Origin: an uncultured virus (IMG/VR IMGVR_UViG_3300031612_000006)
Lineage: Duplodnaviria > Heunggongvirae > Uroviricota > Caudoviricetes > Crassvirales
DNA length: 64,000 nucleotides
IMG/VR virus record: IMGVR_UViG_3300031612_000006
Reading direction: 5' to 3' (one strand)
The position numbers and the translations under genes were made by a program. The first letter of the stretch is position 1. Each line of letters starts with the position of its first letter. Positions 177 to 34,600 of the stretch are shown here, in pieces. The notes beneath the pieces were generated by a model. That model searched no databases. It had not been told where the DNA came from and saw only the letters and a list, made by a program, of their open reading frames with translations.

Positions 177-1559
177 ATGCCAAGAGAAACTTTAGACTCT
201 ATATTAGAGCCAGACGTACAAGATGTACAAGAAGAGCAAGCTGTAGCTCTAGTGATTGAGCCGTTTATGTTCGAGATGGACTACGGTTCAGACATAGAGG
301 TTGACCTGTCATCATTTGGTATATCCGAGATGTCAGAGGTATCACACCACGAAGAAAGAGGCGAGCTTAGGGATTATTTAGAAACCGAATATGAGATAGT
401 ATACTCAGAGAATGACGATTCAATGCATATAGAAGAATCGTTTGTATGTGCATCGTCAGATGGGTTATATCATATGGATAATTCTCAGACAGTTATAGAC
501 TCACATGGTGATGATGTGATGATACATGAAGATAACTATGAGACTGTGTACTGTGAGGATAACGACAACACGTACTTCGATACTTACGCAGCAGAGAGTA
601 ACGGTATAGAGTTCTGCTCAGGGTGTGAAGAAACAAGAGATGTCGAATGCCACGACTTCGAGGAATGTCAAGAAGATGGCAGCGTAGACTCATTCGATAA
701 TTCATCATCAGCACATAAAGGAACAGTGAACACCAAGCATTCTAGAGCTAGAGGGATAACCTCTACAACCTTTTCTAACATGAACGGTATGAGATACACG
801 TTCGGAGTAGAACTAGAAACATCAGGAGGTTATATTCCGAGTTGTGATGGAGATGATTTAAATGCATCAGCAGTAGAAGATGGTAGTATAAGCGGTAAGG
901 AGTATGTAACTGGAGTTCTTGTAGGAGATTCAGGGTTAAGTATGCTCAAGAAAGTTTGTGATACTGTACAAGAAAACTGTGAGATTAATTCTCAGTGTGG
1001 TATACATGTACATATAGGTGGAGCTAACTTTACTAGAAGGTTCACTATCATGGCTGTACACTTAGGGTTAATGCTTCAAGATGAGATATTCGAAATGATG
1101 CCTCCATCTAGGAAGACTAATACATATTGCAAGCCCATCCCTTCTAATCATAAGGAGATGAACTTCAATAATTACAAAGAACATTTAGCAGACTTGATTT
1201 ATTCTTCATGCACATTGGATAAGAATTATAACAAGAAAACCAGACTAGGTAGGTATCCCTCAAAGAGATACTCTTGGTTAAATATGGTTGGCTACAGCCA
1301 AGCTAATGGTCATAACACTATAGAGTTCAGAAATCATGGAGCGTCCATGAACTACGATAAGATTCGTAACTGGACTTTAATATGTATGGCTTTTGTAAAT
1401 TTCGTTGAGAATAATCAACGTAGAATCTGGGAGGCTAAAGACTTACCTGGAGGAATAACATTAAGCGAAGTATTAAACGAGAGCTTAGGTGATAACATAG
1501 GTGGACAGTTGTCTAGATATGTTAACAGTAGGAAAGATAAATTTAACGGGGCGATTTAG
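177..1559 (+). CDS. Putative amidoligase (COOH-NH2 ligase, Amidoligase_2-like) with acidic Cys-containing N-terminal region
   Basis: Motifs FGVELET, EDGSI..KEYVT, CGIHVHIG and TIEFRNH, typical of phage amidoligase enzymes. Confidence 0.8.
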   Translation: MPRETLDSILEPDVQDVQEEQAVALVIEPFMFEMDYGSDIEVDLSSFGISEMSEVSHHEERGELRDYLETEYEIVYSENDDSMHIEESFVCASSDGLYHMDNSQTVIDSHGDDVMIHEDNYETVYCEDNDNTYFDTYAAESNGIEFCSGCEETRDVECHDFEECQEDGSVDSFDNSSSAHKGTVNTKHSRARGITSTTFSNMNGMRYTFGVELETSGGYIPSCDGDDLNASAVEDGSISGKEYVTGVLVGDSGLSMLKKVCDTVQENCEINSQCGIHVHIGGANFTRRFTIMAVHLGLMLQDEIFEMMPPSRKTNTYCKPIPSNHKEMNFNNYKEHLADLIYSSCTLDKNYNKKTRLGRYPSKRYSWLNMVGYSQANGHNTIEFRNHGASMNYDKIRNWTLICMAFVNFVENNQRRIWEAKDLPGGITLSEVLNESLGDNIGGQLSRYVNSRKDKFNGAI

Positions 1560-5832: not shown

Positions 5833-6396
5833 ATGTTTCCAGATTTAAAATCAACAGAAGTAAAAGAAGTAGCATCATACCTTCAAGAAGGTATACACGC
5901 TGTAAAGGTAGACGAGGTTAAAAGCTCTAACACCATAGAAGGGTACACAGGTACACCATTCGTAGAGTTTAAGGTATCCAATGAAAAAGGTACACAAACA
6001 CTAAGGTTCCAAGGAACTGATTCAACAACCTCAGCTATAGCAGCTAGAGTTCGTACAGAAATCTTTAAAGGCTTCTTAGTGAATGCAGGTGCTAAGTCAT
6101 TCGATAACCTAGCTGTGGCTTGTAAGGAAGCTGTAGGAAGCAGTATTAACGTTTGTCTATCTAGTAGAGAGTATTGGAACAACGACAAGGTTACAGGAGC
6201 TCCTATACTACGTAAGTCTATTGACTACAAGTTCTCAGGTAAATCAACTAAGGAATTAGTTATGAAGGACTCTTACAATAAGTCACTATCATCTGAAGAC
6301 TTGCTTGCATTTAAGGCAGCTAACGAAGCTCATATCATGGCTATGTCAGGAGAGACTACACAAGCTGGTCATCCTGCTGATAATACTCCATTTTAG
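5833..6396 (+). CDS. Putative single-stranded DNA-binding protein (DUF669-like)
   Basis: Follows the Sak4-like ATPase; beta-rich; C-terminal tail ...DNTPF like SSB tips. Confidence 0.6.
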   Translation: MFPDLKSTEVKEVASYLQEGIHAVKVDEVKSSNTIEGYTGTPFVEFKVSNEKGTQTLRFQGTDSTTSAIAARVRTEIFKGFLVNAGAKSFDNLAVACKEAVGSSINVCLSSREYWNNDKVTGAPILRKSIDYKFSGKSTKELVMKDSYNKSLSSEDLLAFKAANEAHIMAMSGETTQAGHPADNTPF

Positions 6397-6418
6397 TATT
6401 AACTACTAATATTCTTAG

Positions 6419-6444
6419 CGATAGGTTCCTTCGGGAGCTTATCG
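6419..6444 (+). terminator. Stable C(UUCG)G hairpin (terminator or RNA-processing site)
   Basis: CGATAGGTTC-CTTCGG-GAGCTTATCG after the SSB stop; weak U-tract. Confidence 0.5.
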
Positions 6445-6470
6445 TTGAGTAATATTTAAACACTACACAG

Positions 6471-6887
6471 ATGAGTGAGATATACATACACGGTAATGTT
6501 TCGTCTAGCAAGAATAGTAAGCAATGGACAGGCAAGTACCTGATTAACGGAAAGACTACAAGGGAGTACATCAAGAATACCAAGACTGAATACAGAGAAG
6601 GAAAGGAAACGTTCAAGGAATTAGTCAAAGGACTACCCTTGCCGTATCATATATCCTTTTACTTTATACGCAGTACCAGGAGAAAGTTCGATTACATCAA
6701 TCCAGCACAAACTGTTCAAGACCTTATGGTTAAGAATTTCTGGATAGAAGATGATGATATAACCAACATAGTGCCTTATTTCCATGGCTACGAGGTAGAC
6801 AAGGAGAAGGCAGGAGTAATAATTAAAGTACTAAAACCAGAAGAATATGAGCCGTTCCAAGGACACTCACCAAACAAGACTACTTAA
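6471..6887 (+). CDS. RusA-like Holliday junction resolvase
   Basis: GNVSSSKN, RRKFDYIN..QTVQDLM..WIEDDD pattern. Confidence 0.7.
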   Translation: MSEIYIHGNVSSSKNSKQWTGKYLINGKTTREYIKNTKTEYREGKETFKELVKGLPLPYHISFYFIRSTRRKFDYINPAQTVQDLMVKNFWIEDDDITNIVPYFHGYEVDKEKAGVIIKVLKPEEYEPFQGHSPNKTT

Positions 6888-7128
6888 ATACCTGAAAGAA
6901 TACGGTCACATAACGTCACTAGAAGCTATTAGAGATTTAGGAAACACTAGGCTGTCAGCTACTATATTCAACCTCAAAGAAGAGGGAGTCTTAATAGAAA
7001 CTGAGAGCACAACAGTACCTACAAGGTGGGGTACAACAACAACAGTAGCTAAATACACCTACAAAGGTAAGCTGGAGGATACAAACCAGATGTCTATAAA
7101 CGATGTCATAGATAAAGTCGAATGGTAA
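6847..7128 (+). CDS. Winged-HTH DNA-binding protein
   Basis: LLKYLKEYGHITSLEA..LG.TRLSATIFNLKEEG pattern. Confidence 0.7.
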   Translation: MSRSKDTHQTRLLKYLKEYGHITSLEAIRDLGNTRLSATIFNLKEEGVLIETESTTVPTRWGTTTTVAKYTYKGKLEDTNQMSINDVIDKVEW

Positions 7129-7907
7129 AAACAGAAAAACTAAGTGATGAATATATAGTTGATGATGAATCGTACTTTGCAGATTATAAGTACGTAACTA
7201 ACAGTATGCTGAAGAATATAAAGGGTAGTTCAGCACACAATTTAGAACACTATATAAATTCTACATTCCCTTCTTCCCTTGCTTTGGTTCTAGGTTCTGC
7301 ATTTCATTGCTACTTCTTAGAGCCTGATGAATTTCCTAATAGATATATATGGATGCCTAAGGTGGATAAAAGAACCAAGGTAGGTCAAGCTATATACAAG
7401 GAGTTCGTAGCTAACTCTGAAGGACTAGAACCTGTATGTGAATCATACAAGACTAAGTTTGAGGCTATGGAAACAAATCTAATGAGTCATCCAGTAGTAA
7501 GGAAGATTATGGATGGAGCTGAGACTGAGACTATACACTTCTGGAAGGACACGGGTACTAACCTACTGTGCAAAGGTAAAGTTGATATAGAGAAAGGTCA
7601 CCTGCTTGCAGACTTAAAGACTACCTCAGAATTAAAGGGTGCTAGTCCATGGAAGTTTCAGGAATTTAGAGATAAGTGGGGTGTCGAGCAACAAGGTGCA
7701 TTCTATTTAGATGGAACCAAGAAGCAAGATTTCTATTTCATTATGGTAGAACTTAAAGCCCCGCATAATGTGGGTGTGTATAAGTTAAGCCAAGACTCTA
7801 TAGATAAAGGACGAGCATCATACAGAAAACAATTAGAAGACTATAAGGTATACGTCAATGATGAGGTATGCACGTTTTACAATAACAACGAAGCATTAGA
7901 AGTGTAA
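7122..7907 (+). CDS. RecE/exonuclease VIII-like PD-(D/E)XK nuclease (DUF3799-like)
   Basis: GSAFHCYFLEP, DKRTK.G, CKGKVD, DLKTT and Q.AFY motifs. Confidence 0.85.
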   Translation: MVKTEKLSDEYIVDDESYFADYKYVTNSMLKNIKGSSAHNLEHYINSTFPSSLALVLGSAFHCYFLEPDEFPNRYIWMPKVDKRTKVGQAIYKEFVANSEGLEPVCESYKTKFEAMETNLMSHPVVRKIMDGAETETIHFWKDTGTNLLCKGKVDIEKGHLLADLKTTSELKGASPWKFQEFRDKWGVEQQGAFYLDGTKKQDFYFIMVELKAPHNVGVYKLSQDSIDKGRASYRKQLEDYKVYVNDEVCTFYNNNEALEV

Positions 7908-8329
7908 TGGCTGAAGAAACAACTGAATTAGTATTTGTTTATGGGACTCTCAAACGAGGGCTCCATAACAGCTACTTACTGGATAACGATGAGTTCGTAA
8001 CAACAGGAGAGACTAAAGAGAAGTATGTAATGACTGAGGACGGTATACCGTATGTGTCAGAGCTGATTCCTTACTCTACTATACAAGGAGAGATATTCAG
8101 GGTAACTAATACCTCAATGCATACATTAGATATGTTAGAGAGTCACCCAACCTGGTACGAAAGAAGACAAGTATTAATAGTAGCAGAGGATGGTGTTGAA
8201 CACAACTGCTGGTTATACTTTAACGACAAGACATTAGGTTCATTAATTAATATAGACGGAGATTATGGCTCAAAAGAATCAAGGAGAATTCCTATACAGC
8301 AGCAACAGGAAGGTGCGCCAGCAAATTGA
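7907..8329 (+). CDS. Gamma-glutamylcyclotransferase (AIG2-like)
   Basis: VFVYGTLKRG..N, GEIF.V and LDMLE.HP.WY.R motifs. Confidence 0.85.
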   Translation: MAEETTELVFVYGTLKRGLHNSYLLDNDEFVTTGETKEKYVMTEDGIPYVSELIPYSTIQGEIFRVTNTSMHTLDMLESHPTWYERRQVLIVAEDGVEHNCWLYFNDKTLGSLINIDGDYGSKESRRIPIQQQQEGAPAN

Positions 8330-8486
8330 TTTGCTACTACACCAAAACGCTGTAACACAAGCTAATCTTGGGAGCGAAAGCACCGAAGAAGAGAAAGAAG
8401 AAGCAAGAAAGAAAGATAAAGTAATCAAAGATAAGATTAGTGAGCTCGATGCAGAGTTTGCTGATTTTGTTTTCCCAGAGATATAG
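8265..8486 (+). CDS. Hypothetical protein
   Basis: 73-aa ORF in the operon. Confidence 0.55.
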   Translation: MAQKNQGEFLYSSNRKVRQQIDLLLHQNAVTQANLGSESTEEEKEEARKKDKVIKDKISELDAEFADFVFPEI

Positions 8487-8488
8487 AT

Positions 8489-9028
8489 ATGTCAGAAGAG
8501 AATAGAAGTCATTTAGAGTATTTGTTTGATGTTATAGGTAAGGCTATGAACTTAACCAAGGGAGAGATAATAATTCCTACAAGGAAAAGACAACAAGTCT
8601 TAGCCAGGAAGCTATTAGCTCACTACCTGCGGAAAGGTACGACTCTATCCCTCAGGGAGATAGGTGCAATCATAGGTAAAGACCATGCGACTGTAGTACA
8701 TTATCATAAATCTATTAGTGAGCTGGGTGATACTAGTCCTTATGTTAACGCCTTAATGTATTCAATAGATACAGGGATGGTGCATCCAGCACTTAACCTT
8801 AGAGGTAAGTTATCAGACTTAATTAAATACAAATCATCTAACGATAATAGAGTAGATGATGTCTATGATTTCCTATTCAAGAACATGGATAGTTTTAGCC
8901 CTGAGTATCAGTCCTATAACAATCATTCATTTCAAGACCAGGCAATACAACTACAGAAGGCTGAGATTATCGAGCTAAAACAGAGCGTAGAAAATATGAA
9001 GAGTATTATACGAGAAGCTATAGCATGA
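8489..9028 (+). CDS. Protein with DnaA C-terminal (domain IV)-like HTH
   Basis: RKRQQVLARKL..Y.LR..T.LSLREIG.IIGKDHATVVH matches the DnaA-box-binding signature. Confidence 0.75.
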   Translation: MSEENRSHLEYLFDVIGKAMNLTKGEIIIPTRKRQQVLARKLLAHYLRKGTTLSLREIGAIIGKDHATVVHYHKSISELGDTSPYVNALMYSIDTGMVHPALNLRGKLSDLIKYKSSNDNRVDDVYDFLFKNMDSFSPEYQSYNNHSFQDQAIQLQKAEIIELKQSVENMKSIIREAIA

Positions 9029-9297
9029 AAATGCAAATACATTTAAACGAATTAACGTACAAGGTAACTAGATACGCATCGCTTAAAGGTGAGATTAAAC
9101 TTCAGAAGAAGTTTGCTATAGTAAAGACGACTGAGATATGTATAGGCAGTAGCCTAGATGAAATCAACGACGTTAAATACAACCAGTATCTAAAAGAAAG
9201 ACTGAGCACTACAAACTCTAAGTCTTATGGTTGTATTATAGAATTCATTAGCGTTAATAGTAAACACTTTTGTGGATACACTAACGATAGATTTTAA
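9025..9297 (+). CDS. Hypothetical protein
   Basis: 90-aa ORF with ATGA overlap. Confidence 0.55.
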   Translation: MKMQIHLNELTYKVTRYASLKGEIKLQKKFAIVKTTEICIGSSLDEINDVKYNQYLKERLSTTNSKSYGCIIEFISVNSKHFCGYTNDRF

Positions 9298-9312
9298 TTT
9301 AAAACAAACACG

Positions 9313-9489
9313 ATGCCAAGAGCTAAACCAATATCAAAAGATAGTACAGTAAAGAATGTAACTAAGAGTGCATTCCAATTAATGATGGGTGATAATAGAA
9401 AGGGTGTGGTATCACATTCAAACAAGACATCACCAAGAAACTTCCGTCAACAAGGTGCTACCTTAAATGGTAGACAGTACGGACAATAG
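9313..9489 (+). CDS. Small basic hypothetical protein (MPRAKPISKD..., 58 aa; not in the ORF track)
   Basis: A-rich leader AAAACAAACACG before the ATG; read manually. Confidence 0.5.
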   Translation: MPRAKPISKDSTVKNVTKSAFQLMMGDNRKGVVSHSNKTSPRNFRQQGATLNGRQYGQ

Positions 9490-9570
9490 TAAAGAGAGCA
9501 AGCCACTTGAACGCTGCAAACTAAAGTCCTAGCTCCTAAACTTGCTTGAGTGAACGGAGCTAGGCAACAT

Positions 9571-9640
9571 CAGGGAGAAGCTTAATGGAGAAGCGATTGT
9601 GAAACACCAATAGAAGTAGGTTCGAGTCCTACCCCTTTGA
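9571..9640 (+). tRNA. Degenerate tRNA / tRNA-like RNA; anticodon not assignable (GAA/Phe possible)
   Basis: D arm GCTT-AATGGAG-AAGC; T arm GTAGG-TTCGAGT-CCTAC; imperfect acceptor CAGGGAG/CCCTTTG; 16-nt irregular anticodon arm; no encoded CCA. Confidence 0.55.
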
Positions 9641-9646
9641 CTAACA

Positions 9647-9789
9647 CAAGGATTGTCGCAGTTGGAGCTGCGAGCCCTCGTTGGGAGGGTACTACATAAA
9701 AGGCTCTGCTATTGATGCCCACGAAGTTCTGAACAAGGCTATACATAGATGCAGTTAGTAGTAAGGTGGTTCGATTCCATCATCCTTGA
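9647..9789 (+). ncRNA. tRNA-like RNA with 5-nt anticodon-position loop and ~75-nt variable arm
   Basis: Perfect acceptor CAAGGAT/ATCCTTG; D arm TCGC..GCGA; CCCTC-GTTGG-GAGGG; TACTAC/GTAGTA closing stem; T arm GGTGG-TTCGATT-CCATC. Confidence 0.6.
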
Positions 9790-9889
9790 CGATTACGAGA
9801 GGTGACTGCGTGAGTGTTACTAAAGGAATCTTGAAATGGATTTAAAAGTCAGCGTTGGGGAGGGCGGGATTCCTTCCCAACTATGGACT

Positions 9890-10076
9890 AACTAAAACAA
9901 GACTAAGATGGAACAACCAAAAAAAGAAGGAAGCTATGTGTGTAGAATGAGTAACAGTTATATCAAGATGTGTTACTACACAGGTACAGAATGGTTAGAT
10001 ATGTGGGAAACTACATTGAAAGGTGAAGTAATTAGATGGATGGAAATCCCTAACGAACTAAAACAAGACTAAGATG
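9890..10076 (+). repeat. 21-bp exact direct repeat AACTAAAACAAGACTAAGATG (9890-9910 and 10056-10076)
   Basis: Two identical copies, each ending in a start ATG; a degenerate third copy lies near 10267-10284. Confidence 0.85.
9908..10072 (+). CDS. Small DUF551-like protein (MEQPKKEGSYVCRM...VIRWMEIP, 54 aa; not in the ORF track)
   Basis: P.K.G.Y...W...V..WM.IP pattern; lies between the two repeats. Confidence 0.6.
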   Translation: MEQPKKEGSYVCRMSNSYIKMCYYTGTEWLDMWETTLKGEVIRWMEIPNELKQD

Positions 10077-10280
10077 AACAAAATGAATTACGCTCCTAGC
10101 GAATACAAACATGTTGCTAGCATTATGACTAGTAGTGTTAGGCATTGGTATATAAACATGAAGGGAGTTAGTAGAAGTAAGTTTGACACAGAAAGGAAAG
10201 CTGCTATTGCAGTAGACAAACTCCTAATAGGACGAGGTAAAGAACCCGTAAACATATTAACTAGAGCTAAACAAAGCTAA
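10074..10280 (+). CDS. Small AP2-like DNA-binding protein
   Basis: YKHV...W.I....FDTERKAAIAVDK...G...N pattern. Confidence 0.55.
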   Translation: MNKMNYAPSEYKHVASIMTSSVRHWYINMKGVSRSKFDTERKAAIAVDKLLIGRGKEPVNILTRAKQS

Positions 10281-10281
10281 G

Positions 10282-10500
10282 ATGGACGAAAGAGATATAG
10301 ACCACTACCTAGAAATAGGGTATTGGATACAAGTAAGCCCTCTAGCTAACGCAGGTTCAGGTTGGATATGCGGAGTATACAAACGAGGTAAGAAGACAGG
10401 TAACTGGATAACAGAATCCTCTAAACAATTTAATACACCTAACGAGTGTTACGATTGGGCTGAGTTAGAGATACATAATTTATTAACTAAAACTAAATGA
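10282..10500 (+). CDS. Hypothetical protein
   Basis: 72-aa ORF in a run of small genes. Confidence 0.6.
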   Translation: MDERDIDHYLEIGYWIQVSPLANAGSGWICGVYKRGKKTGNWITESSKQFNTPNECYDWAELEIHNLLTKTK

Positions 10501-10501
10501 T

Positions 10502-10711
10502 ATGCCCGACATCTCGATGTGCGAAGGCGGTATGTGTACATTAAAAGAAACATGCCATAGGTTCAAGGCTGAACCATGTGAATACGCACAATCATACTTC
10601 GGAAACCCACCATTCAAAGGTGTAGACGAAGACAATAACTCCAAGTGTGAATACTACTGGGAGCAAGAAAAACTAACCAATAAAAAAGAAGATGAAACAA
10701 GAAGAATTTAA
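10502..10711 (+). CDS. Small Cys-rich phage protein (DISMC.G..C..KE.C.RF...Q.YF)
   Basis: Conserved-looking Cys pattern common in phage hypothetical proteins. Confidence 0.65.
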   Translation: MPDISMCEGGMCTLKETCHRFKAEPCEYAQSYFGNPPFKGVDEDNNSKCEYYWEQEKLTNKKEDETRRI

Positions 10712-11021
10712 CGACAACATCACGAAAGTATTAAGTCAAATAGCAGAAGCCTTAGTGACCGCTAACAAGACTAGAGATATACTATATCAACTAATTCAAA
10801 TTGAAAGCTCTAGGGTAGATTTAATAGAAGATAAGTTAGAACTATTAGCAGAAGAGAGAGCTTCAGAATTAGAAGCTGAAGAAAAGAAGGGATGTGACGA
10901 TGTCGATGAATTCATTGCCATGCTACACGGAATGAATGAACCACCTGAAGAGTGTACAATGACTGTAAGTAAAGAAAATCTTATGGAGGATTTATTTGAA
11001 CTAATAAAGAAACTAAAATGA
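10692..11021 (+). CDS. Hypothetical coiled-coil protein
   Basis: 109-aa ORF. Confidence 0.6.
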   Translation: MKQEEFNDNITKVLSQIAEALVTANKTRDILYQLIQIESSRVDLIEDKLELLAEERASELEAEEKKGCDDVDEFIAMLHGMNEPPEECTMTVSKENLMEDLFELIKKLK

Positions 11022-12025: not shown

Positions 12026-13292
12026 ACCATACGAAAGCGTGAGCTCGCTTAATGTTTCCTATGTAATTCTTTTCATCGTGCCATTGGTCTGTCGCAGACA
12101 TAGAAGATAAGTGCCTAACGACCATTCCAGCCACTTCTTCAGCTTGTCCGACAGTTATTGTCTTAACACCGTGGAAATGCCCTCTATGGACCTCTACGTA
12201 CTTAACTGAGCTCCATACGTCTCTAAATCTAACAGGGATTATAGTTCCTAAGTCTTTAGCTTTGGTTTTATCACCATGGTCACACACAATAAGAGCATTC
12301 CCGTAGACAAATCCTTTCATTAAAGGTCTAGAGTTGTCTATAGTAACATGTGCATCCTCGTTGTAGTAAACCTCAAGTGCATCTCCTAAGTGTAACATAG
12401 AAGTTTCATCGTGGTTCCCTGGGATTATATTAACATGAACTGGTGCGAATCCTGAAAGGATATTAATAGCTTCCATAATAAGGATTCTACCATATCTGTA
12501 TGCAGAGTATGAATCAGTACAACCTAATTGAGGTGTACCTTTAGTTGTGGACATGAACGGTTTGTCTCCATCACTATTGAAGAAGTCATTTCCGACTGTA
12601 AATAGTATCTTATCTATATTAAACCCAGAAGAGCGAGACAAGAGACTATCAATAGCAGAAAGCAAACGGTCTTTGGCAATCTCAAGTGAGTACTCATCTC
12701 CATTAATACCCAACTTGTTAAGGTGAAGGTCATAAGCCGCAATCTCAAGTAAGAATCCTTCGTTATCGGAAGAAAGAAGAGGGAAAGACTTACTGCTAGA
12801 ACTAGTCCTAGCAAGCTTACCAATATCTTCTTTAATATCTTCACGTATTTGTTTTGCGTTTAATGTAAATGGCTTCAACTTGAACTTAGCCTTAGTCCTA
12901 TACATGGTGACAGTTATAGGTCTCTTCTTTTCATTAAAGCCTGTAACCTCATACGTACCAATATCGAACCAATCTATAGCCCAGGTATCTAAATCTACCT
13001 TGCAATTAGTTATAAGGTCATCTAATGACTTAACACGACTACTATCTTCCACCGAAATGGTTAAGCAATCTTGCTTCTCATTAGTTATAACTTTCTCATT
13101 TGGCATCTCTGCCGATGAGTGAGAGGCTGCTTGTATATCTTCGTTGAAGGCTGCCCTTAAGTTTCTGGCTTGCCCTCTTACAGCCTCGTATGAGGTGTTA
13201 AACATTGCAGCGGTCTCTGAGTAACCACCATTAAGTTTCTCTGGATTCTTGACTAGATAAGCACGTAGCTCATCATTCTTACTTTTTCCCAC
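11973..13292 (-). CDS. Calcineurin-like metallophosphoesterase with N-terminal HTH-like region
   Basis: DLH, GNDFFN, GNHD, HGD and GHFH metal-binding motifs. Confidence 0.85.
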   Translation of the reverse strand: MGKSKNDELRAYLVKNPEKLNGGYSETAAMFNTSYEAVRGQARNLRAAFNEDIQAASHSSAEMPNEKVITNEKQDCLTISVEDSSRVKSLDDLITNCKVDLDTWAIDWFDIGTYEVTGFNEKKRPITVTMYRTKAKFKLKPFTLNAKQIREDIKEDIGKLARTSSSSKSFPLLSSDNEGFLLEIAAYDLHLNKLGINGDEYSLEIAKDRLLSAIDSLLSRSSGFNIDKILFTVGNDFFNSDGDKPFMSTTKGTPQLGCTDSYSAYRYGRILIMEAINILSGFAPVHVNIIPGNHDETSMLHLGDALEVYYNEDAHVTIDNSRPLMKGFVYGNALIVCDHGDKTKAKDLGTIIPVRFRDVWSSVKYVEVHRGHFHGVKTITVGQAEEVAGMVVRHLSSMSATDQWHDEKNYIGNIKRAHAFVWSKTNGLQSEYFYNVPVE

Positions 13293-13557
13293 GATTTCTT
13301 GCTCTGTTTGTAGATTGCTTTTCCTTGACTAACTTACCTTTCTTGGTATGTGACATATCCTTACCGTCCTTATTTCCATAAGTACCAGCTTCACGATTCT
13401 TCTTATTCAACTTAGCTCTATAGCTTTTACGCTCGTCTGTTGAATGATACTTCTTATCGTAAGATTGTTTTTTTAACCTTGCTTCAGGGTTTGCAGCGTA
13501 GTATTTTGCACTTGCAGATTTACCAGCACTCTTGCCAGCTAATGAATTCCTAGCCAT
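13279..13557 (-). CDS. Small basic protein, HNH-like remnant
   Basis: R..LN..NR..G..G..DGKDMSH...NRARN pattern; K/R-rich. Confidence 0.55.
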   Translation of the reverse strand: MARNSLAGKSAGKSASAKYYAANPEARLKKQSYDKKYHSTDERKSYRAKLNKKNREAGTYGNKDGKDMSHTKKGKLVKEKQSTNRARNRGKK

Positions 13558-14992: not shown

Positions 14993-15220
14993 TTATTCCT
15001 TTATCTTGTTAGCCGCAAGGAGTATTTCTATGTGCTGCAACCTTGCAGCTATATCAAGTAATAACCCTTTTAGCTCCGTATCTGACTGCTCTAAATGATA
15101 CACCCTAGACTTAAGTTTAGTCACTTCGTTGTTTAAATTAACCCATAACCCAAAAGCTGTAGCTAATAATACTCCTGATGTTATAACTAATTGTAATATG
15201 CTTACTGACATTTCGTTCAT
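14993..15220 (-). CDS. Membrane-anchored coiled-coil protein (lysis region)
   Basis: N-terminal TM helix followed by heptad repeats. Confidence 0.6.
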   Translation of the reverse strand: MNEMSVSILQLVITSGVLLATAFGLWVNLNNEVTKLKSRVYHLEQSDTELKGLLLDIAARLQHIEILLAANKIKE

Positions 15221-15259: not shown

Positions 15260-15400
15260 TTATGAGCCACACGCCTCACAGTCAGGGTCGTCTATACTGC
15301 AGGCTTCAGGCTGTTCTTTACTTTCTAAACCACCTAACCAATCATCAAAACCAACGTTTAATTCGTCTTCTCCTTTAGCCTTCTTCTCTTCTTTATTCAT
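15260..15400 (-). CDS. 46-aa peptide ending ACSIDDPDCEACGS, resembling the ribonucleotide reductase alpha C-terminal tail (not in the ORF track)
   Basis: Manual translation MNKEEKKAKGEDELNVGFDDWLGGLESKEQPEACSIDDPDCEACGS*; start overlaps the end of the upstream gene. Confidence 0.7.
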   Translation of the reverse strand: MNKEEKKAKGEDELNVGFDDWLGGLESKEQPEACSIDDPDCEACGS

Positions 15401-16313
15401 TTATCTTAAGTTTACCGTGCATCCACGTTGTTATGTTAATATATAGATTACCTTCCTTTGGGTCTATGTTATAATTAATTGTATCAGTATTAACAGAGTT
15501 AACCAGGTTGTAGTCAGAAAGGGATTTGAAGGTATATTTATAATTACCTGCAGGAAGATTAAAACGGTTATGGTCGAATTTAATAGTGAAAGCATTATTA
15601 CCTTCCACTCTTCCCCAGAAAATGTAATCATTACCAGTAGGCTCTGTATAACCATCAATAGCATTTTCTATAATAGACAAGACGTTTGAGTTTTCTGCCA
15701 CCTCTAAGTTTGTAAATATATTCTGCAACCACGTTCTGTAATTAACACTTAAGTGTATTGGCATACCGTCTGCGGCTTCGTAATCCACTAGAGTATCCAT
15801 TAGTGTATCTAAGAAAACTAATTTATCTATTCCATAGTTAGACCTCTCTATTTCAGTATTTTTATTAGAGGACTTAGCTATAGCTTTAGCAACACCCATA
15901 ATTTTATACATATGTATAATGTCGTAATACTTATCGAAATCTCTTTGATTGGTTGGATTTGAATACAACCCAAGGTCATTAGGGTCTAAGTTTGCTGTAG
16001 GGTCAAGACTTTGATGGGCCATAGCTAAATCTAAGTCTGAGCTACATGCAGCCAACACAGGAGTGTCGTCTTCTGTTGTTACAACGAACAACATAACATC
16101 CTCGGCTCCTAACCACTCCCATTTATCTGCTGAAGAGACGCTATAGTTATTAGACAAGTATTCTTGATACTTTAAATGCGTATAACCGTCTCTAGTGAAC
16201 TCTAAAAGAGAGCCTGATTCATTTTTAATCTCAAGGTTTATAGAGAAATCATCACCTCTCTTTGCTGTTATGTCAACCTTCTTAGATTTATCTGCTGTGA
16301 TTTTAATAGCCAT
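15393..16313 (-). CDS. Tail-associated protein (BppU-N-like termini, paralog 1)
   Basis: DITAKRGDDF.I.L ... LPAGNYKY ... TWMHGKLKI. Confidence 0.6.
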   Translation of the reverse strand: MAIKITADKSKKVDITAKRGDDFSINLEIKNESGSLLEFTRDGYTHLKYQEYLSNNYSVSSADKWEWLGAEDVMLFVVTTEDDTPVLAACSSDLDLAMAHQSLDPTANLDPNDLGLYSNPTNQRDFDKYYDIIHMYKIMGVAKAIAKSSNKNTEIERSNYGIDKLVFLDTLMDTLVDYEAADGMPIHLSVNYRTWLQNIFTNLEVAENSNVLSIIENAIDGYTEPTGNDYIFWGRVEGNNAFTIKFDHNRFNLPAGNYKYTFKSLSDYNLVNSVNTDTINYNIDPKEGNLYINITTWMHGKLKINE

Positions 16314-25692: not shown

Positions 25693-28600
25693 CTACCTTA
25701 GAGACCTTTTAGTCCCACTCTTGTTTTGAAGAGCGCCCCTCATAGGACTAGGTAATAGCTGAGCCAAGTTGGATACAAAGTTCTTATCTCCCTTATCTCC
25801 GTACTTACTCTTACGTTTGTACTCACTACCAACTCCTACTTTATATACTGCTTGACCTAGGTTCTTGAACGTATTAACTGCAGGAATGTTAGTCATGTAT
25901 GTAAGCTTAGGGATGTTAACTACTAATAACATATCTCCTAATAACTTCTCCATGAATTTAGCTGCTGGGTCTTCTTCTTCGTCATCAGAAGCCATACCAG
26001 CCATACCTAATAACATAGCAACTATAACTATACCATGAGTACCTCTCCATAAGCGCATAACAGCTTCCTTTTTGTGTTCGCCGTGCTCTTCACCGTAAGC
26101 TTCAAGTTCTTTTTTGAATGCTACTATATTCCACATCTTACCTTCTTCCTTCATTTTAGCAAGGAAGTCAGCTGCTGCAGGGAAAGAACCCATTCTCATT
26201 GTACCTAAATCATCAATATCTTCTTTACCGAATCTATCTCTTATGAATGTAGGGAACCATCTCTTAAATTGCATAGTCATGTTTGATAAAGCATAAAGCT
26301 GAATCATACGAGCGTCAGTCTCAGAATACCCACGACCTTGCACATTAACTACATCTCTTTCTAATTTAGCTAAATCAGATTGAGAGATAGGTTTAGCTCC
26401 GTCTTTAAGTACTAAATCACCTTCAGGACTCACTTCATAAGCATTCCATTGCTCTTCAGTTAGGTTACCTAAGAATGCTGCTTGTTGAATCCAGTTTTCA
26501 GCTAAAACCATAGGAGCAAATATTAAAGAACTTAAAGAACTACCTCCTGTACCTTCAGCAATTTCTTCTGCACGATAAGTTAGTATCCCAAATTCCTCAA
26601 TCATCTTACGAGCCTTAACTCTTATAGTGTCATCGTAAACTTTCTTGTCACTTAAGCCCCAGTATCTACCCTCACCTTTCAGTAATTTAGCTCCACCCAT
26701 TTGTCTGTAAGCATTGTACTTACCGATAGCGACGTTACCTATTGCTGCTGGAACGTTCAAACCTAAGGCTACATACATTGTCCAGTTAACAAAGAAGTTC
26801 GCTACATCAGCCTCTGATTCAAAATCACTAAAGGTTAATCCACGCTCTTTACTTATCAATCCTCTCTTAACAACTTTCTGTAAGTAGTTGATTGCTCTCT
26901 TATTCTTTCCAGCTCCAAGATTAGCGTGAGGGTCAAAATACTTGCCACCACCTAATTGAGCTATAGCAGCATCAACCTCTTGCTTCTTATCTTCGAATCC
27001 TGTAAACATTAACTCCTGAGCTTTAACTTCTGAAGCTTCAACATCTACAACTTTAAATTCTCTATCTTCTTTAGACCAGTGAAGGTGCTTGTAAACAGAA
27101 CCATCAAAGTAAGAGTTACCGTGTTGGAACATGAATAACGACACATAGTTTCTTAGAGCTTTATGTAAGTTTTCTGTAGCTAAGTAAGCTGAAGTAATAG
27201 AACGTTTATGATTAAATCTGTTCTTAGACTCTTCCGACTCTAAAGACATTAAATCATTAACCCTAGAACCTATACTAACATCTCTACCTAAAGCATCTTC
27301 ACCGCTAGCTAAATACTCTTTAGCTTTAGATTTGATTCTTTCAAGACCAACTATTCTTTCCATAGAAGTCTTTTGAATCTTAGCCTTACCATCTGTCCTT
27401 GTAATTACAGATGTACCATCTTCCAATATTTTAATAGTCTTAACGTCAGCACTACTCTCACTCATGTATATAGATTTCCAACTGAAGTAATCTAATGTCT
27501 CAGACTCTCCTGTAATAGGGTTGATGTCTGTAATCATTACATCAGAAATATCCTGGTCTCCCCTAAACATCTGGAAGTACATACCAAACAATCCTCTTTT
27601 CTGTAGAACTTCCCATCTAGAAGATGTAACAGAAGGAACGTAACTAGAACCTCTATCTTGAGCGTACAACTCTTTAGTTTGTATTAATCCTTTATAGAAT
27701 GAAGTGTATGTAACATACATCTCTAAATACTCTTTCTCTGCTTTATGTAAGCTAGTGTAGGCATCACCTTTTCTGTTTAGGTTTCCTGCTTCCGCACCTT
27801 TACCGAAGAATAATCCAGACTTAAGACTTATGTTTGAGCCATCTCTATAGCTAACCTCTCCGTTCTCGTCTACTATTTCTTTAAGTTCAACATCAACATC
27901 TATAAGGTTTTCAAATAACTTACCAGTGATGCTCTCAGAACCTAAGCCCATGTACTTCATCCACAGCTTCTTAGTCATACCCTCAACTCCATCACCAAAC
28001 TTCAACTCAAATAAGTTATTCAACTTAGAGTTCATTTCCTTAGTGATAAGGTTTACGTTTCTAGTGTATTTCATGTGAGTCATTTTCATGCTCTTATTGA
28101 TATACGCTATAGCAGGCTTACCTCTACCAAAGTCACCAGGTGAAAGCCACATAGATAAGTCAGAAATATCCTTACTCATTAAGTCTCCTTTGATAATCTC
28201 ATCCTTAAATGATTTACCTTGAGTAAACTCCCAGTCAGCTATCTGCTTGTTGGCTATGTTATTACCGAAGTGGTATTCTAAATATCTCCTAAGAGGATTC
28301 GCAGCCAACTCATCTAGCTTGAATGATTTAGATTTCTTAATCTTACCCTCAAACAATCCTAATTGAGCTGCTTCAGGTAAGTGGAAATCACCCATAGTTA
28401 ATTTGTCCATGTAGCTATTGTACATTTCTCTAACCTTATTGAATTTTTCGTCAAGTAATTCTTTCTCTCTTTCTTGGTATTCCTTTCCTTTAGATTTAAA
28501 CTCGTACTTAGCTTTCTCTAGGTTAAGTTTTTCCATCTTTTCAAATAGATTCTTAACCTCTGCAACAGAAGCTTTATACACTTCGAACTGATACTGTAAA

Positions 28601-31600
28601 GATTCTTTCTGCTCGTCAGTAAGAGCCTCGTAATCTATATCAGAAGGGAGTTTAGCTTTAACGAAGTCTTCTTGAGACATCTCCTCTCCTATATTGTACT
28701 GCTTATGCGTTCCTTCGAATTCGTATAAAGGAACCTTGTGGAATTTTGTAGTTGATATATGGTTAGGCTTTCTTTGAGAGTTAGTAGGAGAAGCGTTTTG
28801 AATTAAACCTTCCTTCTTAACTTTTCCTTTATACATTAAAGGACCGAATAAACTAATCATAGCAGCCTCAGGCATAGAGCTAAAGAACTGTATAGGGCTC
28901 TTAGTCATCGCTTCGTTCATTCCGAAGTGGTTATCACCTACAATAGAAACCTGATTAGCATCATTAGACCCAACATTCTTAGTTTCTATCTTAAATGCAC
29001 CCTTCTCGTCTAAAGACTCATCTTTACCGAACAAAGCCATGTATGAAAGAATAGCAACTCTTCTTGAGTTAATCTTCTTCTTCTCAACCTTCTCACCTCT
29101 ACGTTGAGCAACGAAGTTAGTGTTGTTAACCACAAACTTATTCATGTCGTTAGTGAACTCACTTACATTAACATCCTCTAATGATTTGAATGTTTCGTTT
29201 ATCTTTCCAGAAACCTCAGCACTAAAGAAGTTCAATAAAGAACCAGGCTTAGTACCCCATCCAGTGGAAACGAAATCATTTGCTACCATAAACTTCTGAA
29301 TGACAGAAGGTAGTTTAGAGAAGTCTTTCTGTATGATTCTAATCTGAGCTGTGAAATCTACCTCACCTCTAAGCTTATCTGCATTTAACTTAAACTTAAC
29401 CATAGGAACCCTTCTAGTATTCTCTTTAATGAAGGTGTCATTATTATCAAACTCTGGAGTTAATACAAACGCATTATGGTGAGTAGCTTCAACGTACTCT
29501 AAGAATTTATTATCGTTGTTATTGTTTTTATATTCAGATAAGAATTGACCGACAGCAACAGTCACAAGACCGTACTTCTCTTCTCTAGATAATTCTTTCC
29601 ACATCTCTCTAGTATACTTATCAGATAAACTGTGAGTACCTAAATCTGCTGTGTATATATTAACTAGTAAATCTGCGGCTACATCTACGTCAGAATGAAT
29701 AGCAGCTCTAACTAAATTTAAAGCCTTAACCATTCTTTCGTTAGCTTCTTCGTCTGTAGATAACTTATTCTTAGAGGTTCCTTTAAAGATACCTTTAACT
29801 GAAGTTCTAGACTTACCCTTTTTATCTTTATAGCTATTAACATCAGCAGCAAGTATACCATTAGAGGATTGTAATCCTTCATCAGTAAACCCACCAACTA
29901 AAGCTGTACCATAACCACCTGAGTAATAAGGGTCGTTCTCAAATCCTTCCTGTATAAGGGAGAAGTCAAGAGCTTTATTTCTTTTAAATAATTGATTGTT
30001 TTCACCAACCAAGTCAGCCATACCTTCGCCATCATCATTACTCTGATTGTCTAACGCTTTATTGGCAGCATGATGCTTAGTTAATGCTATGATAGGATTA
30101 GATGAGTGATGCTTATCTAAACCAACAAAGTGACTCATACTAAGTATGTCTCCATTGATTGTTTCCAATACATGATAAAGAGCTAGCGAAGTAACTCTAT
30201 CCATGTTATCTAAATCAAACGAAGGATAAATTGTATTTATCATTTCGCCTAAGTTTCCACGCTTAGCTATCTTAGAGTCCTCTCCTATAATTTCTTTAAG
30301 AGACTCCTTGAGTTCTTTATTTAAAGCTCCTCTGTTTTCCTCTGTCTTAGAGTAAACGAATTCAGAAGCCTCAGCCCATTTAGCACTCTTAAGGAATTGA
30401 GATATTTTAGCAGGAGGGAACCCCATCTTAATAAGTAATACGAATGTAGCGCCTGTATTGGCTACGAACTGAAACTTACTTCTGTTATTGTTCTTACCGT
30501 CATCTAGTATCAAGTTAAGCCAGTTAGCTAACTCATACCAAGTACCACCACCATCTTCTGATATGTTGTTGTTAATAGAAGATTCAGTCTGACCTTGTAT
30601 GGTAAGCTTTATTCTACGACCATTGAACATTAAGTCTGGGTTACCTTCAGCTAAGTAACTAAAGACTAGGTTCTGAGCAGCTATCAAGCCAATCATCTTC
30701 CCGTTTCCTTTAGTCTGACCAAACATCCTGTGAGCTCCTAACATAGACATATCGTTAGGTATATCGGAACTACCAGTCTTGTTGTTGTATAAAGCCATGT
30801 TAGTTTCCTCAGACACTGTACCGAACTCAAGCTCCTTAGTTAATGAGTTTTGAACTTCAGGCATTAAGAATAAGTCCATAATAGACTCAGTCAATTTGTT
30901 CTTAAGAACATCACCCTTACTCAACTCCTCACCTTCCTTAGCAACCTTAATGGTATTTAAGTGCAACATATCTCCATCTAAATCAGAGCCTATAATTGCA
31001 GACACTAAAGGATTGACAGCTATAGTGTTACCTGGTTTCGTTGATATTCCAGCTACACGAAGAACTATAGTAGAACCACTCGATGAAGCTGGAATTCTTG
31101 TAGCTAAGAACTTAATCTCATTACCAGACTTTATAGCCGCATCCACATCCTCTTGAGTTATTCCTAACTCATTAGCCATGTGTTGAGATATTAAAGCTTG
31201 AGCTGGAATAACGAAGTATTCAGTCTTCTCTGCATTCTTTCCTTTACGGTCTTTGTACTTAACCTTACGACTAGATACAGTCATAGGCTCTAAAGAATCT
31301 TTAGTCTGAACAATCTTGTTAGCAGAACCAACTTCATATCCAACAACTACATCTGACTCTTGAAGAGAAAGCGTACCTCCTGTTCTTATCTTATAAGCTA
31401 TACTCTGAATTTTAGAACTCAGTAGTTTAAGCATAGACACACGAAGAGAAGGAGTAGACATCTTACCGTCTTCTATTGCAGCTTGAACCTCTAATGGTGT
31501 TGAATCAGATTCAGAACTAGCCTTTATAATATCCTCTCTACTTAAATCCTTTAACTCGGAATTGTACTGGTGAGTTAATGCTTTAGTGAAGTTACTAATA

Positions 31601-34600
31601 ACCTTATCAGAGGCAGCGGAAACAGAAGGGTTGTTGTGACCTTTGAATACATTTATGTTAGCAATCATTTGCTTAGCAGCGGTAGCTGTCTTAGCACTCT
31701 TATCTAACTCTCCTTGTATACCAAAGAACCTACCGTCGTAACCATAAATATCATTCTCTTTATCGTAAGAATAAGAATTCATAGTACTGTTCATTTGAGC
31801 TGGAGTCATAGCTTTCAATTCAGCTATACTGAATTTATTTCTAGGAGTTCCTTCTACACCTTTCACTGCACCTTTCTTTACACCAGAGTGAGCGTAAGCA
31901 ATCACTGCGTGACCTCTTAACTTCTTCTTAGCATAATACTTCTCTCTAGCTTTTAATGCTCTGTAAATCTCCTTTAAAGGTCCTGTAACTTTATTGTTAA
32001 GAACTATCGTATGTCCTTTAGCGTAGAATGTATTAGATTCCTGACCATAGAAGCTTGATATTTTCTTGTTATCTACGTTCTTCCCGTAACCAACTAACTT
32101 ATAAGAACCCTTAACATCTACTATATCACCATGCTTAGCTGTTAATTTATCAGCCTCTTCTTGTGTTATGTATGACGCTGAATCCATAAGGTCAGCCTTA
32201 AGAGTTATCTCTCTAGTCTTAGGTACAACCTTAGTCGTTCCATCAGCTTGTTCTTCGCTAACATAATCTAATACCTGTATCTTGTGAGGCATATCGTTAG
32301 AACTTAACCCTTCGTCTTCAAATATTAATAACTCAACACGCTCTCCTGCGTAAGAAGAATCATGGTTAGCAATAAGACCTGTAGCTCTTTTGTTCTTCAT
32401 AGTAAAGTCAGCCTCTTCCATTATAGAAGAAGTGATGTCCTGTAAGTAGAACTTGTTTATGAAGTAATTTAAAGAAGCAAGCTCACCGACTTTAACGTCT
32501 AGCTCAGCACTTAAATCATCAGCCATTTCTCTGTGTCCGTCAAGAGTAGATAAGTCATAAGTAACTCCATCAATACTCAATTCAAACGCCTTCTTGCCTA
32601 GCAGGTTTAGCTCCCCTTTGCCCTCTCTAACGCTACCTTCATTAAGGGTAATCGCTATTGGGTGGGTGAGTCTAAGCTCAGCTATGACAGAAGGACTAGT
32701 AGTTAAGTGCATATCAAACACATCCTCAGGATTGTTGTGTCTGTCTATAATGTCTTTAGTTTTATTCTCGTGATACTGAACCAACTCCTTAAGCTTTTTA
32801 GCCGCTTCTCTTTTGCTCGTAATAGTCTGAGCTTGAGAGTAATACCTTCTAGTCTTGTCAGAGTAATCTCTAACTGGCTGTAGGTAGTATTTAGACTTAA
32901 CCTTAATAGCTCTATTAATCTCAGAAATATCACCCTTACTAACCGTTAGGTTATCTAAGTTAGCTCTATCTAATTGTTGATTAGCATCACCATCTATAGA
33001 GATATACTCTAACTCGTAAGTACCATTAGCTATCATTGCAGCGTAAGGGTTAGTTACTAAGTTTTTCTTTTCCCCGAAAGAGAATAAAGACAAGAAAGCC
33101 ATATCGTTAGCTTTCATGTAATCGTTAAGTGACTCTTTATTGTAAACCAAGAAGTACTTTCTGATGTTCTTATTGAGCATCTCTCCTTCTGGTGTTCTTA
33201 TGTTAGAGTTGTGCGAGTCGTCATCGCTAGCTAATTTAGCTTCAAGTAATCTCTTTGCGTGAGGCACAACTCCCTGAACGTCTTTGAATGAAGATGATAT
33301 ATCACCCTCTTTCATCTCGAACATAGTAATAGATTTCTTCTCCTTGTAAGAGAATTCACCCATATCTTTAGCTATGAACTGACCTTCTTTAATTTGTTTA
33401 ACTCTTACATGCTGAACGTTTCCGTTGTCATTAATAAAGAAGTCTCTAGTGTTTGAATCACCATCTTCTTCGTCAACGAAACCGTCAGTAAATTTAGCCT
33501 CATAAACAAGTGTATCCAAGTTCTCTATAGAGAATCCTAAGAACTCATCTTTAGATAACTTTAAGTGGCTAGACTTCACCATGTGTGGTACATACATGGA
33601 ATCAAGATTAGGTTTAGAGAACGATGCTTGGAATCTAGAAACAAACTCAGCTTCAAGTTCAACAAGTTTAGCGTCAGAGATATTAACGAACTCATCGTTA
33701 GCATCTTTATTCCACTTCTTAAATACAGGGATAAACACATTCTTTACAGCGTCCTTAGTCCAAGTCTCCATAGAGTTAGTACTATCGCTACTAGAGGCTG
33801 CTATTGATATAGAACCCCAGAACATCTCTTTAATCCTATCTCTACTAAAGTATGCTCTAGCAGATATTCTATTACCGTCCTCGTCGCTTAAGACTAATGA
33901 ATCAAGTTCAGCTACGGTTATATCTAATCCTTCTGGAAGTAAGTAGTTGTTTATCAAATTAACCACATGACCACCTGTAAGAGCATCATCTGTATATGAT
34001 AAGTGAAGCATAGCCCTAGACAGGTTAAGTCTTCTTTTGTACTCCTCGTTTACGGCTAAATCAGAATCAGAAACATCTCTACCTCTTATCTTCTTTTCCT
34101 GTACAGCTCTCATGTAACCAAGCCATTCTCCTTGAGTTCTTTCAGCTTTAGTAGTTTCCTCTTCAGTATATCCAACCTTAACTAAGGCTGCTCTTATCTT
34201 TCTTTTAAGACCACTAGTCATAACTGGAGCAAATCCATCACCAGAGATAAGGATACCTTTCTCTGTAGTCATAGAATTAAATTGTAATAGTATGTTTTGG
34301 TAGATATTACCACCAGACATATCAATCTCAGAAGCCATGAATATAAAGAAGTTACCCATAAGCATCTCCTTTTGTTGTGCTACAGTCCCGTTAGGCTTCT
34401 TCTGTCTAGCCTTAGCCATAGCTTTCTCTGCAGCTAATCTAAACATAGGCTCACTTCTATTAGCAGCCGCTAATTCCCGTATAGACTTCATTATGTTCTC
34501 CTTATTAATCAAGGATATATCATAAGAGCCATCACCTATGTACTTATCAGACTTCATGAAGGTTCTAAGAATAACATAGAACTTATCAGCCATAGCCATG

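Follow-up and report, generated by a model that had tools for sequence, protein, structure and literature searches.

A stand-alone marine phage peptide matching the redox-active C-terminal tail of class Ia ribonucleotide reductase, a candidate spare tail acting in trans

Trans-acting copies or mimics of enzyme modules are a kind of protein already known. GrcA (YfiD), for instance, is a small stand-alone copy of the C-terminal module of pyruvate formate-lyase that acts in trans. In class I ribonucleotide reductases (RNRs), electrons pass from thioredoxin to a C-terminal cysteine pair and from there to the active site, as set out in a passage of PMC9669993. For the E. coli enzyme, bioRxiv 10.1101/2021.07.31.454598 describes how the pair C754/C759 reduces C225/C462 and then recovers electrons from the thioredoxin system (thioredoxin, thioredoxin reductase and NADPH); the final ~25 residues of the alpha subunit are disordered in crystals, which has hampered structural work on tail entry. 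Re-reduction of RNR via its own C-terminal tail is treated as intramolecular or intradimer. Here we describe a 46-residue peptide, termed PEP (a name also used for its family), encoded in a ~64 kb stretch of crAss-like phage DNA (IMG/VR record IMGVR_UViG_3300031612_000006; ~38% GC), which at its full length we call the window. The gene lies at 15260..15400 on the minus strand, with its stop codon at 15260-15262. Its product, MNKEEKKAKGEDELNVGFDDWLGGLESKEQPEACSIDDPDCEACGS, ends in QPEACSIDDPDCEACGS, which, judged by its sequence, genuinely copies the C-terminal tail of class Ia NrdA.

This tail module comprises residues 30–46 (15263..15313, minus strand) and carries the cysteines C34, C41 and C44. 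The initial annotation, made without database searches, had pointed out its resemblance to NrdA, and tblastn, PDB, NCBIfam and hhalign comparisons all lead to the NrdA C-terminus. Searching 50,697 GenBank phage records with PEP by tblastn yielded no close homologue and only four matches (E 0.1–0.2), each to the extreme C-terminus of an annotated nrdA gene. A profile built from four peptides had a sole match in the PDB, the ribonucleoside-diphosphate reductase 5im3_A at residues 949–962 of 963 (PQACSIDNPDCEAC, E 0.0047). The sole NCBIfam match was to NF005544 (RNR alpha) at model positions 946–964 of 965, with a score of 13.6 bits against a cut-off of 965; the same model end was also matched by three of five PEP relatives tested. 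Aligning a 76-sequence PEP alignment with a 32-sequence NrdA alignment in hhalign gave a probability of 96.7% (E 4.6e-10) over 20 columns, which are the final ones of both alignments.

Genuine NrdA tails identical to that of PEP also exist. A pattern scan of 185,579 species genomes produced more than 549 matching stretches, 80 of which were kept. Seventy-six of these are NrdAs, nearly all from Gammaproteobacteria, that end in ..ACSIDDPDCEACQ or a close variant, the complete frames measuring about 940–1,000 codons. SAR86 NrdA tails end in ..YDQPEACSIDDPDCEACQ and are identical to PEP at 15 of 15 residues (QPEACSIDDPDCEAC). One further stretch is a Microscillaceae NrdA ending in ..GQACSIDDPDCEACGS, identical at 14 of 14 residues (ACSIDDPDCEACGS), and the remaining three are stand-alone peptides. 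A ~800-aa eukaryote-like NrdA is present in 25 of 61 sampled Flavobacteriales genomes, and many of these enzymes end in ..ACSIDNPD[DE]CEACGS. A word-index search for longer PEP homologues found none, which reflects a limit of the word index; the NrdA tails surfaced via the genome scan. Overall, the last ~20 residues of PEP are homologous and partly identical to NrdA tails of the P. aeruginosa type (5im3; PEACSIDDPDCEAC in PEP versus PQACSIDNPDCEAC) and of the Bacteroidota/eukaryote-like type. Shared features include the three cysteines, their C-x6/7-C-x2-C spacing and predicted disorder, and the terminal G-S of PEP is as in Bacteroidota NrdA.

Beyond the tail, PEP and the RNR large subunit differ. 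The flexible C-terminal tail with a redox cysteine pair is present in PEP, whereas the ten-stranded alpha/beta barrel (PF02867) is absent from its 46 residues, in which no Pfam family was matched at E<=0.1. The ATP cone and the linker are missing as well. PEP is made as a separate product, 29–103 aa long across the family, and possesses a conserved helix of its own that NrdA lacks.

The family is large and ecologically widespread. A word-indexed search retrieved three small homologues of 40–47 aa, and a profile search of 1.84 billion representatives gave 74 clusters at E<=1e-3. Seventy-three of them are 29–103 aa long and carry C-x6/7-C-x2-C at the very end, the exception being P0023 with 12 residues after the motif; the remaining cluster, a 1,957-aa repeat protein, is similar to the helix part only. 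Among the small clusters, 67 of 73 end in C-x2-C-G-S, and the cysteine spacing is x6 in 53 and x7 in 20. Across 76 PEP sequences, C41 and C44 never vary, and conservation of C34 is 90% or higher. Two IMG/VR scans returned 213 and 234 contigs, placing PEP relatives in hundreds of marine phages. In the 80 loci examined from the 213 contigs, all 80 contain a stand-alone open reading frame (ORF) of 33–59 aa, representing 52 distinct peptides. In the 80 examined from the 234 contigs, found with two divergent seeds, 68 loci hold stand-alone peptides and 12 hold full-length NrdAs; 11 of these 12 have an NrdB match alongside, the match being weak in L302. PEP has no family in Pfam (E<=0.1) or PHROG and none in NCBIfam that covers the protein, and its ESM Atlas neighbours are unnamed clusters of 38–49 aa. 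Literature searches covering titles, abstracts and passages for the motif 'CEACGS', for phage/RNR tail mimics and for phage RNR-inhibitor small proteins returned nothing relevant.

The nucleotide sequences point to a conserved gene under purifying selection, not a remnant. The 59 distinct nucleotide versions use 2–5 synonymous codons for the residues that are invariant (Q, P, three C, D, D, E, G, S), with Ser drawn from both codon boxes, and all three stop codons occur at one same position. The ratio of nonsynonymous to synonymous polymorphism (pN/pS) is 0.137 for the last 17 codons (the tail), 0.47 for the preceding 13 (the helix) and 0.26 for the last 30, values from loci retrieved by tail patterns, a procedure that inflates apparent tail conservation and to that extent counts against our interpretation. 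The pattern-free profile search gives the same conserved columns. Conservation as a free-standing gene, a check that the initial annotation had proposed, is thus seen both in the 73 small clusters and in the low pN/pS of the tail.

These data bear directly on the idea that PEP is non-functional as such, being either the 3' remnant of a decaying phage nrdA or the precursor of a ribosomally synthesised and post-translationally modified peptide (RiPP) that happens to resemble the tail. The ORF is short, full-length phage NrdAs with the same tail turned up in the second IMG/VR scan, and the F-D-x-W-L-x-D-L motif superficially recalls RiPP leader-peptide boxes. However, selection is strong and the stop position fixed, PEP has its own start, the bacterial copies described below have their own terminator hairpin, and no NrdA-like sequence lies upstream of the tail. 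Nor were RiPP maturation enzymes found by Pfam and PHROG among 62 viral neighbour clusters or in the scanned chromosomal loci. We consider this explanation very improbable and largely refuted.

Upstream of the tail, PEP contains a second conserved module. The initial annotation had missed this module, and also that PEP has homologues in cells and how large its family is. Residues 10–27 (15320..15373, minus strand) are predicted to form an acidic amphipathic helix. With the family alignment, AlphaFold2 models a single helix over residues 10–27 (predicted local distance difference test, pLDDT, 79–93 in those blocks) followed by a coil that forms the tail module; the mean pLDDT for PEP is 76.8. 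The helix core F18-D-D-W-L-G-G-L-E26 fits the family motif [FW]-D-x-W-[LIV]-x-[DE]-[LM]-E (residues 18–26), which is found in 67 of 73 small representatives and in 122 of 128 unique peptides. Hydrophobic residues at i, i+3, i+4 and i+7 define one helix face. PEP as a whole has an isoelectric point (pI) of about 4.05 and a charge of about -9.5, and residues 1 to about 17 are variable. The predicted architecture, one helix and a coil tail in which the CxxC lies, and the lack of a Pfam match speak against PEP being a redoxin itself.

The helix module lies outside the hhalign match to NrdA, as the tail alone aligns. A tblastn alignment with SP-15 over residues 6–46 had suggested an equivalence of the helix with the NrdA helix 'F-x-A-W-K-x-G-L-K-T', and this was rejected. 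When a hidden Markov model (HMM) of 122 helix modules was run against 6,386 six-frame ORFs (616 kb, containing ~80 NrdAs), the NrdA site was not picked, and the best matches were unrelated short frames at E>=0.29. On these comparisons the helix is not NrdA-derived, and it is presumably a docking element. The host NrdB tail ends in ..GFTFDADF, too short a stretch for its likeness to the helix to be more than speculation.

A subfamily of 14 of 77 small members carries an N-terminal head with at least four extra cysteines in CxC/CxxC pairs, resulting in the layout 4-Cys head, helix, redox tail (P0004, P0005, P0025, P0028, P0037, P0038, P0040, P0043, P0049, P0056, P0068, P0069, P0072 and P0075). 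The section of PMC9669993 on class II RNR C-termini describes a predicted 'zinc finger' plus a cysteine pair at the opposite end. These long C-termini are echoed by the 14 PEPs, which combine a 4-Cys head with a cysteine-pair tail. In class II RNRs, however, both elements lie within the enzyme chain, and the window PEP lacks the 4-Cys head.

Within the window, the ATG of PEP (15398-15400) overlaps the final codons and stop (15393-15395) of a 306-aa ORF at 15393..16313 in the tail-fibre region. This 8-nt overlap (15393..15400, minus strand) is consistent with translational coupling. The next downstream ORF (14993..15220) begins 39 nt past the PEP stop. Pfam matches in the window include the crAss major capsid, muzzle and both ring proteins, a P22-like portal, DnaB and further replication genes. 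Around PEP are collagen-like tail-fibre proteins, a DUF5675 protein, small membrane proteins and an exonuclease, and the Pfam matches identify its operon as a crAss-like late/structural operon. Both the 46-aa ORF coupled inside a late operon and the lack of an RNR body in the window, as claimed at the outset, stand: Pfam on all ORFs of at least 100 aa and on 18 small ORFs gave neither PF02867 nor another RNR family, and NrdA, NrdB and NrdJ, used as tblastn queries, found nothing in the window. An identical PEP occurs on 11 contigs of the protein collection and is therefore called by gene callers elsewhere. The longest of these contigs measures 68,523 bp, so the window spans most of the genome. 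Two syntenic relatives, 97% and 100% complete, share 50–80% amino-acid identity over the exonuclease–lysis block, and no RNR large subunit was found in either.

All sequencing runs that contain the window's stretch are labelled marine metagenomes, and contigs from four marine DNA runs show the presence of the stretch. In runs X2, X3, X5 and X7, the ~40 nt that encode the PEP tail (15260-15301) draw extra contigs that are far deeper than the phage, in X5 up to a depth of about 970 versus 6. Further variants of PEP, such as ..EEGDQPEAC and ..DLEDGEQPEQ, are encoded in the flanks of these extra contigs, which shows that several populations with a PEP gene live side by side, some of them at high abundance.

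Stand-alone PEP genes occupy at least four unrelated phage neighbourhoods. The largest group has the order endolysin, holin, three small genes, PEP, two genes, large terminase, portal. The second, crAss-like and including the window, runs from tail-fibre genes through PEP to lysis genes. A third consists of DUF5675, HNH, endonuclease I and PEP, and the fourth comprises VRR-NUC/ParB/methylase regions. Ten long PEP-carrying phage records were searched whole, and nine had no match to PF02867; seven of these nine are 97–100% complete (CheckV). In the tenth record, PEP is translationally coupled to a class II RNR. In such phages, any RNR target must therefore be that of the host. Taken with the stand-alone state at 80 of 80 and 68 of 80 loci and with purifying selection, these near-complete carriers lacking RNR support the earlier proposal that an RNR alpha tail is encoded as a free peptide.

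Within flanks of 5–8 kb, an RNR gene accompanies stand-alone PEP in one lineage only (L072–L074). Here, the start of PEP overlaps the end (..TAATG..) of the gene for a 625-aa class II RNR, in which Pfam recognises the barrel and the B12-RNR insertion domain, and PEP is followed by genes for a thioesterase, thymidylate synthase and a T4-type glucosyltransferase. By its gene content, this block is a nucleotide-metabolism cluster. In L073, a 147-kb IMG/VR phage contig, positions 6094-10799 encode the class II RNR, PEP, a 4HBT thioesterase, thymidylate synthase, DUF6378 and a T4 beta-glucosyltransferase-like protein, the last of which suggests a modified (glucosyl-hydroxymethyl) base pathway.

A ~122-aa thioredoxin-fold protein (cluster 28) is encoded 1.5–3.2 kb from PEP in ten loci (L003, L008, L009, L027, L031, L045, L068, L070, L071 and L076). 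With its N-terminal signal-like peptide and no CxxC active site, it looks like a secreted but redox-dead relative of thioredoxin that crAss-like and other marine phages have conserved. Its signal peptide and missing CxxC ruled it out as the redox partner of PEP.

The phage neighbourhoods could also be read differently. PEP might be a general thiol- or metal-binding peptide that serves in virion/lysis disulfide handling, as a redox buffer or in Zn/Fe binding, its NrdA likeness stemming from a shared partner (thioredoxin/glutaredoxin) or from convergence. In line with this, PEP is located beside lysis and structural genes in the window and in the largest locus group, it is very acidic, the 4-Cys head of the 14 members is suggestive of a zinc knuckle, and MsrB is a neighbour in two chromosomal loci. 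However, a 14–20-residue match with the hhalign E-value given above and with 15 of 15 identities to true NrdA tails is hard to reconcile with convergence. No structural or lysis partner is constant across the phage groups, and the 'thioredoxin' neighbour of the crAss-like relatives has a signal peptide and no CxxC. The window PEP has just three cysteines, which also sets it apart from zinc ribbons and knuckles. NrdJ/ThyA coupling in one lineage and the co-occurrence with NrdA in 12 of 12 bacterial genomes (see below) are further points against it. We regard this explanation as unlikely, and more generally a role unrelated to RNR seems less likely because the match is long and exact and there is no constant structural or lysis neighbour. 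As to a redox helper for the neighbouring tail/lysis proteins, one of the functions suggested earlier, the context evidence favours the RNR/thioredoxin link instead, since neighbourhoods vary, one lineage couples PEP to NrdJ/ThyA and all Flavobacteriales carriers have NrdA.

PEP is not confined to phages. A profile search of 301 Flavobacteriales species genomes found matches in 65. In 53 of these the NrdA C-terminus alone is matched, and the other 12 contain an additional strong match (E 1e-18 to 1e-20) in a frame of 51–78 codons that encodes a peptide of 40–50 aa. These chromosomal genes have housekeeping neighbours: in four cases CTP synthase (pyrG) on one side and DNA polymerase III delta (holA) on the other, in a fifth holA, and elsewhere TonB-dependent receptors, YceI, MsrB, TatC or S-adenosylhomocysteine hydrolase. 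A hairpin and T-run follow each of the 12 genes on the 3' side. All 12 carriers have a class Ia NrdA with an intact tail (11 recognised as the second profile match, G003 by Pfam), compared with 25 of 61 genomes in the background sample. The carrier genomes are small (1.2–2.3 Mb).

In 400 sampled Gammaproteobacteria, no stand-alone PEP of comparable score was found; 122 of them match, nearly all through NrdA C-termini, with a few matches in short frames, some at contig ends. The distribution indicates that the family belongs to marine Flavobacteriales and, in far more diverse form, to their presumed phages. Peptides ending in ..CEACQ (P0059, P0074) were considered as a form for gammaproteobacterial hosts and may be NrdA fragments. 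The idea was dropped because an IMG/VR scan seeded with them gave only stand-alone ..CGS/..CSG (one ..CGA) peptides and full-length NrdAs, and none of the 400 Gammaproteobacteria had a stand-alone copy.

Upstream of the chromosomal PEP genes (L198–L209), we observed a direct repeat, GTT[ACG]ATAA[CGT], at -83..-93 and -127..-138 from the ATG. Both copies, about 44 bp apart, are present in 10 of 12 loci and a single copy in the other two. The upstream regions contain 22 matches in 3,120 bp versus 3 in 32,691 bp of the rest of the loci, for a motif that was defined after seeing the data and that lies inside a terminator-like palindrome in two loci. A similar element, TGTTAATAAC (GTTCATAAC in one genome), followed by a G/A-rich run, is found 160–194 bp upstream of nrdB in three genomes (L171/L317, L314, L181); the other nine have TTGTTGAAAAC at that place. 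This shared repeat may reflect co-regulation of PEP and nrdAB. NrdR boxes, sought with a consensus at up to four mismatches, were detected neither upstream of chromosomal PEP nor upstream of the nrdB control in three genomes, and Rfam gave no family in 18 chromosomal PEP and nrdB loci.

The tail homology, selection, stand-alone state, distribution and genomic contexts of PEP are thus established. The initial annotation had inferred a free tail, which holds, and had left four possible functions unchosen: trans-acting re-reductant, competitive inhibitor, thioredoxin decoy and redox helper of the neighbouring proteins. We tentatively favour a helper, in which PEP would act as a diffusible 'spare tail' that enters the thioredoxin/glutaredoxin-to-NrdA relay in trans. 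In the proposed mechanism, PEP would work as two modules, with the acidic amphipathic helix serving for docking and the disordered C-terminal cysteine tail for chemistry. Host thioredoxin or glutaredoxin would reduce PEP, and reduced PEP would then reach the NrdA active site with its oxidised cysteine pair. Re-reduction of host RNR, and in one lineage that of the phage class II RNR, could in this way be sped up or sustained by PEP. A phage without RNR would gain deoxynucleoside triphosphates (dNTPs) for about 140 bp of coding, and some marine Flavobacteriales may employ the same device themselves. That PEP is redox-active and which partners it has are inferences, and so, most of all, is whether it helps or inhibits.

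The retained C-x2-C fits a redox substrate or shuttle. The helper direction is preferred because all three cysteines and an intact C-x2-C are kept, because RNR-less phages need a working host enzyme, and because the sole RNR-linked context is a biosynthetic cluster. The opposite sign is rather doubtful in our view, although it fits the data almost as well and draws on the same tail identity and conservation. PEP would then be a Sml1-like competitive inhibitor or decoy, its tail mimic occupying the active-site entrance or titrating thioredoxin/glutaredoxin, so as to throttle host RNR, divert reducing power for the phage or act as a cellular brake on dNTP pools. There is precedent: Sml1 is a small protein proposed to act where the R1 CX2C region regenerates the active site, and it blocks R1 by competing at the site served by that C-terminal region (Zhang et al. 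2007, as cited in a passage of PMC6382339). Synthetic beta-tail peptides also inhibit RNR, according to entries in the reference list of PMC9221315. The additional docking helix would make PEP a tight two-site binder, a slow-growing Flavobacteriales cell with a small genome could use a brake, and a phage that brings along a class II RNR would be able to afford a block of the host's class I enzyme. On the other hand, the RNR-less phages (nine of the ten long records) rely on host dNTPs or host-DNA recycling and would block RNR without obvious benefit, and a pure blocker need not keep three cysteines and an intact C-x2-C.

Comparison with these inhibitors reveals limited likeness. PEP resembles Sml1 and the Spd1/Dif1/Hug1-type fungal RNR regulators in being small and largely unstructured. 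However, no sequence relationship was detected (no Sml1-type or other Pfam match at E<=0.1, and no PHROG), Sml1 does not copy the tail, and PEP is bacterial and phage-borne. The synthetic peptides derived from the beta C-terminus of herpesvirus or mouse R2 (titles in the same PMC9221315 list) are short and acidic/aromatic and bind alpha. They are man-made and copy beta, whereas PEP copies alpha and its helix motif is not at the protein end.

Several points weigh against a spare tail that helps. The window PEP sits in a late structural/lysis operon, away from the replication genes. The L073 class II RNR keeps its own C-x4-C C-terminus (..CAGGAC..), so PEP is not simply its missing or severed tail. 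The 12 carrier genomes fall into two sequence groups and hence are not independent events. Each item of context fits an inhibitor as well as a helper, and, unless PEP is docked by its helix, a free peptide should lose out to the native tail, which is tethered. Moreover, the bacterial carriers keep intact NrdA tails, so no 'replacement' is needed. In this respect PEP also differs from GrcA, since replacement of a damaged part is not indicated. As with GrcA, a stand-alone gene duplicates the C-terminal module of an enzyme, in viral loci and in 12 chromosomal loci; the concept alone is shared, as the enzyme, the chemistry (glycyl radical versus dithiol relay) and the sequence differ.

A wider version of the helper reading, which we put forward with still more reserve, is that PEP represents a new 'enzyme part' auxiliary metabolic gene. 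A helix-docked spare tail would carry electrons to the host class Ia RNR, and to the phage class II RNR, raising dNTP output while slow-growing marine Flavobacteriales are infected. In some of these bacteria it would be a native RNR accessory, possibly co-regulated with nrdAB via a shared upstream element. PEP hints at an undescribed way of tuning DNA-precursor supply. If true, a widespread natural protein made of the tail alone would imply that re-reduction is open to help or blockade in trans, and that this opening is put to use by phages and by oligotrophic bacteria of the sea. A 140-bp gene would then join the viral routes for manipulating host nucleotide supply, in phages that lack RNR. 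For RNR enzymology, PEP could serve as a natural probe of tail entry into the active site and of redoxin recognition. It is also a clean case of a functional small ORF named by no family library.

The window contains other unusual genes. In the structural block, one 4,327-aa ORF (25693-38676, minus strand) is far above the typical size of a crAss-like virion protein and has no Pfam family except a weak, sub-threshold Pch2_N match. A very basic 92-aa protein (13279-13557, minus strand; phrog_6437) is encoded by DNA that is 74.6% identical over 114 nt to Prochlorococcus podovirus genes (P-SSP6, 9515-10a gp50); nothing else in the 6-kb region matched a GenBank phage at the nucleotide level. The early region encodes an amidoligase_2-domain protein (177-1559, plus strand) and a gamma-glutamyl cyclotransferase-like (GGACT/AIG2) protein (7907-8329, plus strand), which together form a peptide-ligase/cyclotransferase pairing.

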